From positions 24,366,001 through 24,430,000 of the forward strand of contig NC_073401.1 of NCBI RefSeq assembly GCF_028641065.1: a stretch of DNA of 64,000 nt. Reading direction: 5' to 3'. Under the pieces are notes generated by a model. The model was not told the DNA's origin, searched no databases, and saw nothing but the letters and a program-made list of their open reading frames with translations. This DNA comes from Leucoraja erinacea. Taxonomy: Eukaryota. Positions 6,397 to 18,427 of this stretch are shown one piece after another (within the stretch, counting starts at the first letter, position 1; the number at the start of each line of letters is the position of its first letter). The position numbers and the translations under genes are program-made.

Positions 6397-6430
6397 ATGT
6401 TGGGGCTACTTCTGGTACTTCTGCTCCCAG
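6397..6430 (+). CDS. PLA2G1B: PLA2 copy A exon 1 (signal peptide)
   Basis: ATG...CCAG|gtaacg; [11 protein letters not shown]. Confidence 0.9.
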
Positions 6431-7741
6431 GTAACGAGTCTCTCCCCCGCCTCAGCCTTGCCTTGGACGTTGTTCGCTTGATGTTCTAACGTGATTGTTT
6501 CTGTCAGGTTGCCTCCCCCCTGGTGTAGCCGGCGGTGACACTGAGTCCCTTCAGCCCAGAAACCTCTTGCAGTTCCGCAAGTTGATTAAGTGCGCCATCC
6601 CCGAAAGCAACCCGACGCGGATGTTCAACAACTACGGATGTTACTGCGGGCCTGGTGGACAGGGGGAACCGGTGGATGATCTGGACAGGTGGGTCGATGC
6701 AGAGGTCTGTCTGGAGCCGGGTCCCACACATTGCAGGCCAGGGCTGGCTCTGGCCCAGACAATTGTTCGTCTCCATTTACTGAAGCTGCAGGATTGAACC
6801 TTCACTGCAGGCCATTCATTCTTCACATTCAGAATAGCCCAATAGATTTTCCCATGAGCTGTGAAATGTATGTTTTATGAAATATTCTTGGGTGCCACTG
6901 ACTTATATTGTCGCCTAGGGTTTGGAGCCATTCTAGTTTACAGATACAGCATGGAAACAGGCCATTTGGCCCATCGGGTCCATGCCAACCATCGTTCACA
7001 CTAGTCACAGTATGGGGGGAAACTGGAGCACCTGAGTTTAGCGCCTGAGGAAACTCATTGGGTCACAGGGAGAACGTGCAAACTCCACACACATATGACC
7101 CGAGGTCTGGATTGAACCCGGGTAACAGCAACTCTACCGCTGCGCCACCGTGCCGCCCTCACTGTTCCTGCCTCACTTCAGGCAGCTCCTGGTTGCAAGT
7201 ATTCCCATCCCACAATGAGTCTCCCACCCCACCGCCCACAGGTCCAATGTGGATCTCAAACCTGCTCAGGCTGGTTCCGCTCTGATCACCTCGGGACTAT
7301 TTTGCTGCATATGATGTTTGTGCTGCTGCAAACCATCAGTCAAAGTGTTGTGTTGATTATGGTTGCAGTGTTTCCTACCTGACATGACCCATGTTCTTGC
7401 AGGTGCTGTCAGACACACGACAAATGTTATAGCGCGGCTAAGAGCAAGCGCTGCATATTGCACAAGCACCCCAAACTTGTGCCCTACAAGTTCACCTGTT
7501 CAGACAAGACCGTGACTTGCGGCAGTGAGTATGGTCCAGGAGAGGCTTGGAAAATTATTGCCTTCACAATCCATGGGCAATATGTTCCTAATAATGCGTT
7601 TTCCGTTTCTTTTCAGGTAAAAATAAAAAATGTGCGCAGATTGCCTGTGAATGTGATAGCAATGCGGCCGCTTGCTTCGCCAAAGCATTTCCCACGTACA
7701 AAAAAGAATACAAGAGTATGGATAAATCCAGCTGTAAATAG
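6397..7741 (+). CDS. PLA2G1B: Group IB secreted phospholipase A2, copy A (146 aa, cationic); join(6397..6430,6529..6688,7403..7524,7617..7741)
   Basis: GT-AG introns; exons 34/160/122/125 nt; [146 protein letters not shown]; Ca loop, H48/D49/D99, 14 Cys incl. C11/C77. Paralogue (PLA2G1B-like). Confidence 0.93.
6529..6688 (+). CDS. PLA2G1B: PLA2 copy A exon 2 (propeptide, N-helix, Ca2+ loop)
   Basis: tggtgtag|CC...GACAG|gtgggt; YGCYCGPGG. Confidence 0.92.
7403..7524 (+). CDS. PLA2G1B: PLA2 copy A exon 3 (catalytic His-Asp)
   Basis: ttgcag|G TGC TGT CAG ACA CAC GAC...GGC A|gtgagt; CCQTHDKCY. Confidence 0.93.
7617..7741 (+). CDS. PLA2G1B: PLA2 copy A exon 4 (coding part)
   Basis: ttttcag|GT AAA...CECD..AAACF...TGT AAA TAG. 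Confidence 0.92.
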
Positions 7742-8899
7742 GGCCTCAACGTGTCCCTGCGTTTACGAGTCTCCTCGACTCTGTGGGGAATACTTGCCTT
7801 ACAGGTTGCATCCTGCAGTTTGCTTCCAGCAACTCGAGGGACCATTGATCGATCTCCTTGTTTGCTACGTTAATGTAATCAGTAATCTCATTTAAATCAA
7901 ACACTCCTTATCCCGTTCTCACCGTCTTTCACTATCTGTGCCACTCATGATGCTAAAGACTGGATCGCTTCAATCTCCCTGCAGTGAAAGCTAATTCTGG
8001 TTTGTGTCTCTTCCCATAACGTTCATAACCAAAATCTGCAATTATCCGTGTCCAATATCCTCACTCCCTCTCCAAAATATGAATGCAGCAGCATTGGGGA
8101 ATCCTATTGAAAATCCAGGTTTACATCCTATTGGGATGTTCACACCCGCAGTCCAGGGCTTTCTTCTAATTAATGCTGTCACTACTAAATTCTGCAATGA
8201 ACGTATCTAATGGTCATTCTTAATGACATTGTCTGTGGCTCAGTTAACGAAGGTGGTGGTCGTGTATTTTCTATAATCTATTAAAATGATTTGAGCATGT
8301 TCAAGGTTGCATGGTGTCTCATTTCTTGTGTCTCACTCTTGTGTCAAACCACAAATGTCACAGCAAGAAAGAACCGTCAAAGCAAGTATGGGCTGGGACT
8401 TCTCTTGGATCTTCTCAATTCAACTGGCAAACATAACCTGTACCTGACAGGACACCAAGCGCTGGAGTAACTCATTGAGTCGTTGCATCTCTGTGATAAG
8501 TGACATTTTGGGTCGGGATTCTTAGTTGAGTTAAGATTAGTTTAGTTTAGGTTAACTCTAAACTTTAGAGATGCAACGTGCAAACAGGCCCTTTAACCCA
8601 CAAAGTCCACGCTGACCAGTGATCACCGCACACTATCCCACACCCAAGGGGCAATTTACGGAAGCCAATTAACCAGCTGGTCTAAACCAGCATCTGCAGT
8701 TTCTTCCTTCAATGTACAATGGCCAATTCCTATCCTACACTCATAAGGACAATATTACTGAAACCAATTAACCTATAGACTCTGCATGTCAACTGGTGCA
8801 CTAGGAGAAGTTCCACACAGTCACAGGGAGAACGTACAAACTCCTTACAGACAGCGCCCATGGTCAGGATCAAACATGGGTCACTGGCTTGATTGATAG

Positions 8900-16044: not shown

Positions 16045-16098
16045 GCATGGGCTGAGCATTCAGAGTATTGATTCCAGGACTAGACACAGCAAACGAAG

Positions 16099-16132
16099 AT
16101 GTTGGGGCTACTTCTGGTACTTCTGCTCCCAG
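16099..16132 (+). CDS. PLA2G1B: PLA2 copy C exon 1
   Basis: Identical to copy A exon 1. Confidence 0.9.
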
Positions 16133-18427
16133 GTAACGAGTCTCTCCCCCGCCTCAGCCTTGCCTTGGATGTTGCTTGCTTGATGTTCTAACGTGTTTGT
16201 TTCTGTCAGGTTGCCTCCCCCCTGGTGTAGCCGGCGGTGACACTGAGTCCCTTCAGCCCAGAAACCTCGTGCAGTTCAGCAATATTATTAAGTGCGTCAT
16301 CCCAGGGAGCCACCCACTTATAACCTTCAACAACTACGGATGTTACTGCGGGCCTGGTGGACACGGGGAACCGGTGGATGATCTGGACAGGTGGGTCGAT
16401 GCAGAGGTCTGTCTGGAGCCGGGTCACACACATTGCAGGCCAGGGCTGGCTCTGGCCCAGACAATTGTTCGTCTCCATTTACTGAAGCTGCAGGATTGAA
16501 CCTTCACTGCAGGCCGTTCATTCTTCACATTCAGAATATTCCAATAGATTTTCCCATGAGCTGTGAAATGTATGTTTTATGAAATATTCTTGGGTGCCAC
16601 TGACTTATATTGTCGCGTAGGGGTTGGAGCCATTCTAGTTTACAGATACAGCATGGAAACAGGCCATTTGGCCCATCGGGTCCATGCCAACCATCGTTCA
16701 CACTAGTCACAGTCCCGACACACAAGGGGTAGCAATGTTACAAAATTTTGAGATTTAAAAAATCAAGTCTGCAATTTTATCCCATCAGATAAAGCATAAC
16801 AATAAGTTTAATTTGACACCTAATTCACTTTCATATCTCAAGTAATAAAAAAGTTTTGGCCATTTTCATACACGGAAATTAGCATCTTGTTCCCTATTGA
16901 TTTTCTATGGACATAACAAAAAAGCTGTGATCGTGGACAGTCAAAAGCCCATAACCTTCTTAATAATTAAGAGAACTGAATGAAATTTTCAGTTATCATA
17001 GATTGAAGCATTCTGAAACAAATATAAAATAATCTTACTTGGATGACCTGAAATTAAAGCATATAATTAGTTAGTTACCCAATTGTAGCTAATTTCAAAC
17101 TTCAATTACTAGTTCTAAACATCTATCCATTTCTTAATGAATGATTAACATTTTTAAATAGCCCAAGTGTCCAAATAATATTCACAAATAACTCACAATA
17201 AAACATGATTTTTAAATCTCATTTACATCAATTTATAGGCCAAATGGAAGGAATTTAGTGTTCAATTGCTGCAAATTAAAGTCCATTTAAATCGGCTTTC
17301 TAGTGGGTTCCTGTGAACGCGCTGGTTTAGAACGTTCACATTGCGCTGGATTTGTGCCCTCAAATGCCCAGAAAAATACTGCGGGATATAAAGAGCCCAA
17401 AATGAACTACTCGCTATAGAAAACTTTATATGCAGGGTTATATACAAGCCCCATTTAATGTAAAAATAAGGTACATACCTTTAATTGTTTGCTTTATAAA
17501 ACCCTGGGGCTGCGAGAGGTTGCGGATTGAGAGAGTGATTTTTAAACTACTATGAATATTATACAAGGCCATAAAAACTAATAATACCTTTTGCGACGGG
17601 GTCTTCCAGCGATTTTCCGTTAATGATTTACTAGGCTGAACATTTTCGATTGGAACAGCCTAGTAAAAATCGTGTTTTAAACCCGCCCCCTCTAAACAGC
17701 GCCAAAATCGCGCACACGGGGTAGGGCAGATGCTCAGACACGATTCAGGTAGGTTTTGTAACATACCTACAAGGGGTAATTTACAGAGCACAATTAACCT
17801 ACAAACCCACACGTCTTTGGGGTATGGGGTGGAAACTGGAGCACCTGAGTTTAGCACCTGAGGAAACTCATTGGGTCACAGGGAGAACGTGCAAACTCCA
17901 CACAGATATGACCTGAGGTCTGGATTGAACCCGGGTAACTGGCGCTGTCAGGCAGCAACTCTACCGCTGCGCCTCCGCTCTGATCACCTCGGGACTATTT
18001 TGCTGCATGTGATGTTTGTGCTGCTGCAAACCATCAGTGTTGTGTTGATCATGGTTGCAGTGTTTCCTACCTGACATGACCCATGTTCTCGCAGGTGCTG
18101 TCAGACACACGACAAATGTTATGGCGCGGCTGCGGAAATGGGCTGCACATTTAGCGAAGGTCCCGCACTTGTGCTCTACAAGTACACCTGTTCAGAAAAG
18201 ACCGTCACTTGCGACTGTGAGTATGGTCCAGGAGAGGTTTGGAAAATTATTGTCTTCACAATCCATGGGCAATATGTTCTAAATAATGTGTTTTCTGTTT
18301 CTTTTCAGGTAACAATTATAAATGTGCGAAGTTTGTCTGTGAATGTGATCGCAATGCGGCCGCTTGCTTCGCCAACGCACAACCCACGTACAATCCAAAA
18401 TACAAGTTTATGCGGAAATGTAAATAG
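16099..18427 (+). CDS. PLA2G1B: Group IB secreted phospholipase A2, copy C (144 aa, 15 Cys); join(16099..16132,16231..16390,18095..18216,18309..18427)
   Basis: Exons 34/160/122/119 nt, GT-AG; mature [123 protein letters not shown]48/D49/D99 intact. Paralogue (PLA2G1B-like). Confidence 0.93.
16231..16390 (+). CDS. PLA2G1B: PLA2 copy C exon 2
   Basis: YGCYCGPGG Ca loop; canonical splice sites. Confidence 0.92.
16731..17768. mobile_element. Non-autonomous DNA transposon (~1.04 kb, AT-rich) in copy C intron 2
   Basis: Imperfect TIRs AGCAATGTTACAAAA / TTTTGTAACATACCT; 9-bp TSD ACAAGGGGT; empty site seen in copy B (~13945-13960). Confidence 0.85.
18095..18216 (+). CDS. PLA2G1B: PLA2 copy C exon 3
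   Basis: CCQTHDKCY; ctcgcag|G...GAC T|gtgagt. Confidence 0.93.
18309..18427 (+). CDS. PLA2G1B: PLA2 copy C exon 4 (coding part)
   Basis: CECDRNAAACF...KCK*. Confidence 0.92.

Follow-up and report, generated by a model that had tools for sequence, protein, structure and literature searches.

We analysed a 64-kb stretch of the 2.19-Gb little skate genome (Leucoraja erinacea), hereafter the window, which corresponds to contig C25:24366001-24430000. It was observed that the window carried four genes of group IB secreted phospholipase A2 (PLA2): A (+ strand, ATG at 6397), B (- strand, ATG at 14578), C (+ strand, ATG at 16099), and D (- strand, ATG at 27444). A whole-genome search with the 5' end of A returned eight matches and revealed three further copies upstream of the window (U1, U2, and U3). 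The derived cluster consisted of six copies, namely the intact four-exon genes A, C, and U1-U3 and the truncated B, and it adjoined D, an acidic gene of the canonical type. The initial annotation had proposed a group IB family in a cartilaginous fish; NCBI protein names identified the source as little skate, and the group IB identity was borne out by the C11-C77 cysteine pair, the propeptide ending in Arg, and nesting among IB genes in the tree. The evidence presented below indicated that the mature proteins of the derived copies have diversified under positive selection.

The divergence between A and C was distributed very unevenly. The coding part of exon 1 (0/34 differences) and the stretch of exon 2 that encodes signal peptide and propeptide (0/53) were identical, giving 0/87 nt for the whole leader. 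Intron 2 had six differences within its first 240 nt and the 3' untranslated region (UTR) had one within its first 120 nt, and the pooled non-coding DNA differed at 40/1684 sites (2.4%). The mature region of 122 codons carried 65 nucleotide differences, with 40 amino-acid changes and three codons that differed only synonymously, and one 2-codon indel lay near the C-terminus. The non-synonymous divergence (dN) of the mature region was 0.22 versus a non-coding divergence (K) of 0.024, and the fast change was confined to the mature protein. These results reproduced almost exactly the counts given by the initial annotation (exon 1, intron 2, 3' UTR, about 65 nucleotide and 40 amino-acid changes, three synonymous codons, and the indel) and agreed with its claim that the exons evolve faster than the introns. 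In viper PLA2 isozyme genes, the mature exons also diverge faster than the introns, as in the skate copies. The same method of exon/intron comparison was applied to the habu SSP genes (PMC6609765).

To evaluate selection, we compared dN with the synonymous divergence (dS). By the Nei-Gojobori method, the dN/dS ratio (omega) exceeded 1 in all 15 pairs (1.09-4.43), with significance at P<0.05 in only 2/15; for A and C alone it was 1.66 (P=0.12), an excess of dN below significance. Since the pairwise tests were underpowered, significance came from codon models fitted with our own GY94 site-model code to six sequences (B up to its break) over 124 codon columns. The M0 model gave an omega of 2.33 (p=0.004 vs 1). 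M2a fitted better than M1a (twice the log-likelihood difference, 2dL, 43.4; p=4e-10), with an omega of 9.7 at 28% of sites, and M8 fitted better than M7 (2dL 46.6) and M8a (42.9). With the non-coding tree, the M2a-M1a comparison gave 40.4, and with a star tree 56.4; when double and triple hits were allowed, 27.6 was left (p=1e-6). Fitted exon by exon on the best null tree of 15, 2dL reached 12.1 for exon 3 and 26.2 for exon 4, and the summed value was 41.0 (6 degrees of freedom, p=3e-7). Positive selection on the skate copies was therefore well supported. The strong selection proposed by the initial annotation held across trees, multi-hit codons, and per-exon trees, and the codon models returned a class with omega >1 instead of a dN/dS at or below 1.

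Seventeen sites had a naive empirical Bayes (NEB) posterior >0.9 (3, 17, 19, 20, 31, 56, 57, 62, 63, 65, 68, 70, 87, 108, 113, 117, and 119, in the sequential numbering of copy A), and seven of them fell within the 16 codons of region 56-73 (p=0.0014). This region, together with the N-terminus, is named as the binding interface of pancreatic PLA2 in a review (PMC10893444).

A contrary explanation is that there was no real acceleration: the copies would be old paralogues under relaxed constraint, with introns and flanks made alike by gene conversion, or else a product of misassembly. Several results pointed in this direction. The exon and non-coding trees rejected each other (approximately unbiased test, AU, 0.042 and 0.011), and Nei-Gojobori dS exceeded K in 13/15 pairs, where multi-hit codons inflate dS. 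Fourfold sites were variable about twice as often as non-coding columns (3/26 versus 56/964, p=0.2), so the introns probably understate the age of the copies. The promoter, 5' UTR, and exon 1 of D were 94-96% identical to those of the derived copies (27370-27610 versus 6233-6472), whereas exon 2 was only 72-73% identical. Around the promoter and exon 1, D differed from A, B, C, U1, and U2 at 9-11/214 sites; the count of 56/214 for U3 was inflated by a 6-nt deletion. Species-specific exon 1 residues were common to the D-type and derived proteins in Leucoraja, Rhinoraja, and Hemitrygon. The D and derived lineages split before skates and stingrays did, yet their promoter and exon 1 were nearly alike. 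Inverted pairs would also favour conversion. The shared species-specific residues suggested ongoing promoter conversion between D and the derived copies. On all of these results, conversion probably takes place, flattens the non-coding DNA, and accounts for part of the exon/intron contrast.

Nevertheless, gene conversion cannot explain the codon-model result. The tests for omega >1 used exons only and survived changes of tree and multi-hit models, and codon positions 1 and 2 varied more than position 3 (34, 33, and 27 variable columns, respectively). The distal 3' flanks of A and C were 96-97% identical over 3.6 and 1.2 kb, and other DNA runs held the locus, one of them with several exon 3 variants. 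The explanation without acceleration is largely refuted, and we consider it highly improbable. The initial annotation had named intron identity produced only by conversion, together with a high exon dS, as a reason for doubt; conversion is indeed probable, but selection in the codon models stands.

Sequencing runs from outside the assembly gave further evidence. In DNA run X4, contigs tiled the region of A, and exon 2 differed at 1/162 positions. Run X7 contained DNA of a second species, in which the 3' part of intron 2 formed a single contig (depth 142, 5/260 differences from A), and exon 3 was found in three contigs with depths of 30, 51, and 28 and with 17, 14, and 8 differences, respectively (among the 8 of 14 pieces shown). 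The closest exon 3 contig differed significantly from intron 2 in this respect (p=0.003), and its seven listed changes altered five codons, all non-synonymously (5/5). For exon 4, 6/7 changed codons were non-synonymous, giving 11/12 for the two exons together. These results demonstrated that the pattern of exons changing faster than introns is repeated in the second species. Since other DNA runs carry the locus, with several exon 3 variants in X7, the multi-copy locus is real, and the assembly artefact considered by the initial annotation was ruled out. Run X2, which we guess to be RNA, contained one 418-nt contig that joined exons 1, 2, and 3 with 1, 1, and 4 differences from A and used the acceptor at 6508. 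More divergent, paralogue-type pieces were found in runs X1 and X3, and an X3 piece joined exon 2 to exon 3.

We then examined how widely the derived proteins occur. Protein searches with C exon 2, with U3, and with an alignment query returned 6, 91, and 787 matches, respectively (best 120 of 787 listed). In a 43-row tree, 27 batoid rows formed one clade with support of 100/98. A 53-row tree with sharks omitted one intron-retaining and two fused batoid models and four outgroups of the 43-row set, and was built with no group II or X outgroup. Here, the clade held 30 rows from eight batoid species (Shimodaira-Hasegawa-like approximate likelihood ratio test, SH-aLRT, 97) and, under midpoint rooting, nested with the batoid D-type genes in a group of 36 rows (SH-aLRT 95). 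None of the six shark proteins fell in the derived clade, and the absence from sharks rests on those six only. Three fused shark gene models formed an artefactual long branch and contributed data on loop length and residue 69 alone. The subfamily has so far been found only in skates and rays, and it appears to be batoid-wide as sampled. No description of it was found in the literature searched, which left most subscription papers outside, and the genes were annotated automatically by NCBI; to that extent, the initial annotation's suggestion of an undescribed expansion was sustained.

The derived proteins shared simple diagnostic features. The C61-C77 spacing was 15 (13 in one protein) and none of the 30 had a spacing of 16; residue 69 was Lys in 22, Ala in 3, Thr in 3, and Ile in 2, and Tyr69 occurred in 0/30. 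All 23 other proteins, including D and six shark proteins from five species, had both the spacing of 16 and Tyr69. The derived proteins are thus an IB-derived variant that lacks the loop and Tyr69 of canonical group IB. The median net charge was +7.5 for the 30 derived proteins versus -4 for the 23 others; among the skate genes it was +11 for A, U1, and U2, +9 for U3, +2 for C, and -7 for D (isoelectric point 4.6). H48, D49, Y52, Y73, D99, C11, and C77 were invariant in 30/30 derived proteins, which also had the Ca loop residues Y28, G30, and G32 (G32 in 29/30). From this residue set, the derived copies are predicted to be catalytically active D49 enzymes, except B, which lacks D99. The initial annotation had stated that the cysteines, the Ca loop, and H48/D49/D99 are kept; this applied to A and C but not to B, which has lost exon 4, and C has one cysteine more. 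Copy C has 15 cysteines, the extra one near the exon 3/4 junction, together with Ala at position 69, and is nearly neutral; it may dimerise or act on another target. At the sequence level, the propeptide ended in Arg in 7/7 skate cluster genes, including the five intact derived copies, and exon 2 of all seven scored above the PF00068 (Phospholip_A2_1) cut-off. The AlphaFold model of A had helices at 31-41, 69-85, and 117-139, strands at 102-111, and a mean confidence (pLDDT) of 79.5; confidence within the mature region was lowest at the 56-73 loop, and the model confirmed only the fold, with its three helices and beta-wing.

The trees also bore on the age of the copies. In the 43-row tree, one Amblyraja protein joined A (99/95) and three joined C (98/92); the two Rhinoraja derived proteins formed their own pair. 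On this grouping, the A/C/U split would have followed the split from Rhinoraja and preceded that from Amblyraja. D differed from its Rhinoraja counterpart at 16/124 residues, whereas A and U2 differed from a Rhinoraja derived protein at 46/122 and 36/120, respectively. The family called young by the initial annotation is therefore young with regard to these skate copies, but the subfamily is older and spans skates, sawfish, stingrays, and mobulids.

The gene models are listed in Table 1. The A and C units shared 95-97% identity across several kb, U1 and U2 formed a direct repeat with 98.2% identity over 8.7 kb, and B/C and U2/U3 were arranged as head-to-head pairs. Copy B broke in exon 3 at about 13412 and continued with 3' UTR sequence, with the loss of about 350 bp including exon 4 and D99. 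In the skate derived copies, the exon 2 acceptor (6508 in A) lay 21 nt upstream of the D-homologous site, which lengthened the leader by seven residues. The old acceptor AG was still there in A, B, C, and U1-U3 (window 6508-6528 in A). A 160-nt exon 2 starting at the D-homologous acceptor was ruled out for the young copies by the spliced contig and the NCBI models; the mature protein is unchanged by this choice. The derived copies probably descend from the D lineage. A by-eye search with a consensus for a PTF1-type pancreatic promoter element found nothing convincing.

Table 1. Features of the PLA2 cluster (window positions, unless the contig is given)
Feature	Position	Strand	Remarks
Copy U1	C25:24329322	-	Intact four-exon gene upstream of window
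Copy U2	C25:24339889	-	Intact four-exon gene upstream of window
Copy U3	C25:24346632	+	Intact four-exon gene upstream of window
Copy A proximal promoter and 5' UTR	6233..6396	+	TATA-like box at about 6335-6342, read from sequence
Copy A exon 1, signal peptide	6397..6430	+	A = NCBI XP_055511214
Copy A exon 2, 181 nt: propeptide, N-helix, Ca loop	6508..6688	+	Spliced contig and NCBI model
Copy A exon 3: H48, D49, Y52, remodelled 61-77 loop, Y73	7403..7524	+	
Copy A exon 4, coding part: D99, stop	7617..7741	+	
Copy B 3' UTR remnant	12919..13411	-	Fused directly to broken exon 3
Copy B exon 3, truncated	13412..13510	-	About 350 bp including exon 4 deleted
Copy B exon 2	14287..14467	-	
Copy B exon 1	14545..14578	-	Head to head with C; B = NCBI XP_055511217, 111 aa
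Copy C exon 1	16099..16132	+	C = NCBI XP_055511530
Copy C exon 2	16210..16390	+	
Copy C exon 3	18095..18216	+	
Copy C exon 4, coding part	18309..18427	+	
Gene D exon 4	24089..24207	-	D = acidic canonical-type group IB gene
Gene D exon 3: full pancreatic loop, Tyr69	25338..25465	-	
Gene D exon 2, 160 nt	26433..26592	-	Best PDB matches are pancreatic PLA2s
Gene D exon 1	27411..27444	-	Region -140..+74 versus A, B, C: 9-10/214 sites differ

Repeats common to the duplication units lay around the genes in the window, and intron 2 of C was lengthened by an inserted segment of about 1 kb (9564-10512, 12058-12905, and 16730-17760). Exons of a GLUT-type sugar transporter (L020:1291-1617 and L019:6785-6994), which appeared SLC2A11-like by similarity, lay about 35 kb upstream of the cluster. 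A Pfam scan of 286/644 unique open reading frames revealed no neighbour gene downstream of D in the window or the next 20 kb. Human PLA2G1B adjoins SIRT4 and PXN. Paxillin (23.06 Mb) and a SIR2-family exon (23.17 Mb) were located between the cluster (C25:24.33-24.39 Mb) and a second IB-type gene, E (21.58 Mb), and a search for COX6A found no match anywhere.

A genome search with PF00068 returned 30 matches, which comprised the cluster, gene E, three genes on C20, two intronless frames, and two copies on small contigs. Gene E (C25:21580403-21583448) adjoined GCN1 exons 2.8 Mb from the cluster, and Asn replaced Tyr28 in its Ca loop. The three tandem genes at C20:7.916-7.966 Mb appeared group X-like by eye and, with the small-contig copies (C393 and C1717), constituted a second PLA2 expansion. 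The two intronless full-domain frames (C18:35.60 Mb and C34:5.51 Mb) kept H48/D49. None of the 30 matches looked like group IIA by eye. Elsewhere, two adjacent IB-type genes were fused in NCBI models from a sturgeon, a stingray, and three sharks, so tandem IB pairs exist outside skates and copies may be hidden from length-limited searches. Several distinct PLA2G1B-like clusters were observed in Peromyscus, a possible parallel expansion in rodents. A paper on the catshark pancreas lists a "secretory phospholipase A2" (PMC4362833).

The derived genes resembled vertebrate PLA2G1B in their four exons, the signal peptide and short Arg-ended propeptide, the 14 cysteines with C11 and C77, the Ca loop, and H48/D49/D99, and the best PDB matches were pig, bovine, and human pancreatic PLA2. 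Unlike PLA2G1B, they were multi-copy and mostly cationic, with one residue fewer in the loop, no Tyr69, an omega >1, the upstream acceptor, and the seven additional leader residues. One explanation of this divergence is digestive diversification, in which pancreatic or intestinal enzymes would have been tuned to bile salts, to the phospholipids of different prey, or to PLA2 inhibitors carried by prey. The propeptide kept in the five intact copies and the near identity of their promoter and exon 1 to those of D agree with it. Against it, the subfamily expanded in skates and mobulids alike, although skates are benthic and mobulids filter-feeding, and a sustained omega near 10 would be more typical of conflict than of diet. 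A pancreatic PLA2 has been purified from stingray (PMC3050761), which speaks for this explanation; by our count, its N-terminus was identical to E at 14/21 positions, to D-type proteins at 11-12/21, and to a derived protein at only 10/21. Since this N-terminus was closest to E and a second IB gene exists, the main pancreatic PLA2G1B may be a gene other than D, and E may be the main digestive PLA2. We regard digestive diversification of the derived copies as unlikely, though deserving of some weight.

Recruitment as a toxin, that is, as a venom or skin-secretion enzyme convergent with elapid group I PLA2, was also weighed. The clade was present in skates and sawfish, neither of which is known to have a venom sting, and skates are not known to have a venom gland. 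The NCBI names "pseudexin-like" and "superbin-like", as well as the PLA2 matches in stingray spine transcriptomes, are no evidence of a toxin. The architecture is like that of the elapid venom clusters, which grew from and beside a PLA2G1B gene with a shortened loop (PMC13320979), but the origin was independent, and the skate loop lost one residue compared with five in elapids. Although transcripts of D49 PLA2 are reported from stingray spine tissue, the authors themselves cite PLA2 activity in stingray venom as minimal and suggest that the transcripts may be of non-venom origin, and PLA2-family matches all stood at <=1.04 transcripts per million in one transcript dataset of its supplement (PMC8781517). 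The toxin role raised by the initial annotation was thus left without support, with the stingray spine data pointing indirectly against it, and we give it very little credence.

A reproductive or signalling role would place the proteins in seminal, oviducal, or egg-case secretions, or make them receptor ligands, and conflict between the sexes or over receptors would drive their evolution. Any arms race over binding is compatible with positive selection on surface residues, and the background section of the stingray paper cites receptor-mediated, non-digestive roles of group IB enzymes (PMC3050761). The catalytic residues were nevertheless invariant in every derived protein, and we consider this role improbable.

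The cationic character of the derived proteins invited comparison with mammalian group IIA. Group IIA enzymes have a C-terminal extension with a Cys50 bond and no C11-C77 pair or propeptide. In contrast, the derived proteins kept C11, C77, and the propeptide, were without the group II extension, and had a lower net charge; the presence of C11/C77 and the propeptide ruled out membership of group IIA. Lys at position 69, found in most derived batoid proteins, is also the group IIA state. The two were alike in their high Lys/Arg content (22 in the 124 residues of A and 23 in human IIA; PMC7583969). In the same review, human IIA is described as cationic, selective for anionic membranes, and bactericidal, and mouse PLA2G1B is reported to kill helminth larvae (PMC5644720). 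For these reasons we favoured defence against microbes or parasites, to which we assign an even chance.

In the proposed sequence of events, a D-type gene would have been duplicated in the batoid ancestor, and the derived subfamily re-duplicated in each lineage, the skate copies having arisen at about 2-4% neutral divergence. Gene conversion would keep the promoter, exon 1, and introns alike and hence expression similar, while selection would diversify the membrane-docking face. The product would be a secreted zymogen activated by cleavage after the propeptide Arg, whose cationic face could favour the anionic membranes of bacteria or parasites before hydrolysis. Shifting targets would then drive an arms race and divergence.

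Several observations weigh against this interpretation. Exon 2 alone gave no significant selection (2dL 2.6, p=0.27), and the codon tests comprised only six sequences, with approximate site calls (NEB) from our own code. The excess of dS over K and the variability of the fourfold sites belong here as well, and the codon changes in X7 fell at sites already flagged through A, so that this overlap is not independent. Charge was uneven, with 2/30 derived proteins net negative and C at only +2, and in the review PMC7583969 mammalian IB is ranked last in bactericidal potency. The raw RNA runs X10, X13, and X20 gave 6, 0, and 2 reads, which are traces only and no test of silence. The initial annotation had named a lack of transcripts from A or C as a ground for refutation; spliced contigs were present in X2 (A-like, from a run whose RNA status is guessed) and X3.

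Taken together, we interpret the locus as a tandem and inverted cluster of positively selected, mostly cationic batoid secreted PLA2s derived from group IB, which would serve as gut or mucosal defence enzymes; as a whole, this account seems to us about as probable as not, and its evolutionary part is held with high confidence. In a bolder version, which we advance only tentatively, batoids would have turned a pancreatic-type duplicate into a cationic, IIA-like weapon against microbes or parasites, in a batoid-wide arms race at venom speed with the promoter locked by conversion. Members of the RNase A family and lysozymes are duplicated secreted defence enzymes of other folds under positive selection, with birth-and-death clusters, a cationic shift, and surface diversification, and the skate cluster may be likened to them in these three respects. 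Positive selection in duplicated secreted enzymes is an already known kind of phenomenon. Accelerated evolution of PLA2 exons has been treated as a hallmark of venom, and the skate cluster is a clear case in a non-venomous fish. The same scaffold, loop, and type of locus can be recruited for another conflict, which provides theories on how toxins arise with a natural control. In addition, the apparently undescribed batoid subfamily has a simple diagnostic (shorter loop, no Tyr69, and cationic charge), and it makes testable the question of whether cartilaginous fishes have an equivalent of the bactericidal group IIA enzyme or of the anthelmintic mouse PLA2G1B.

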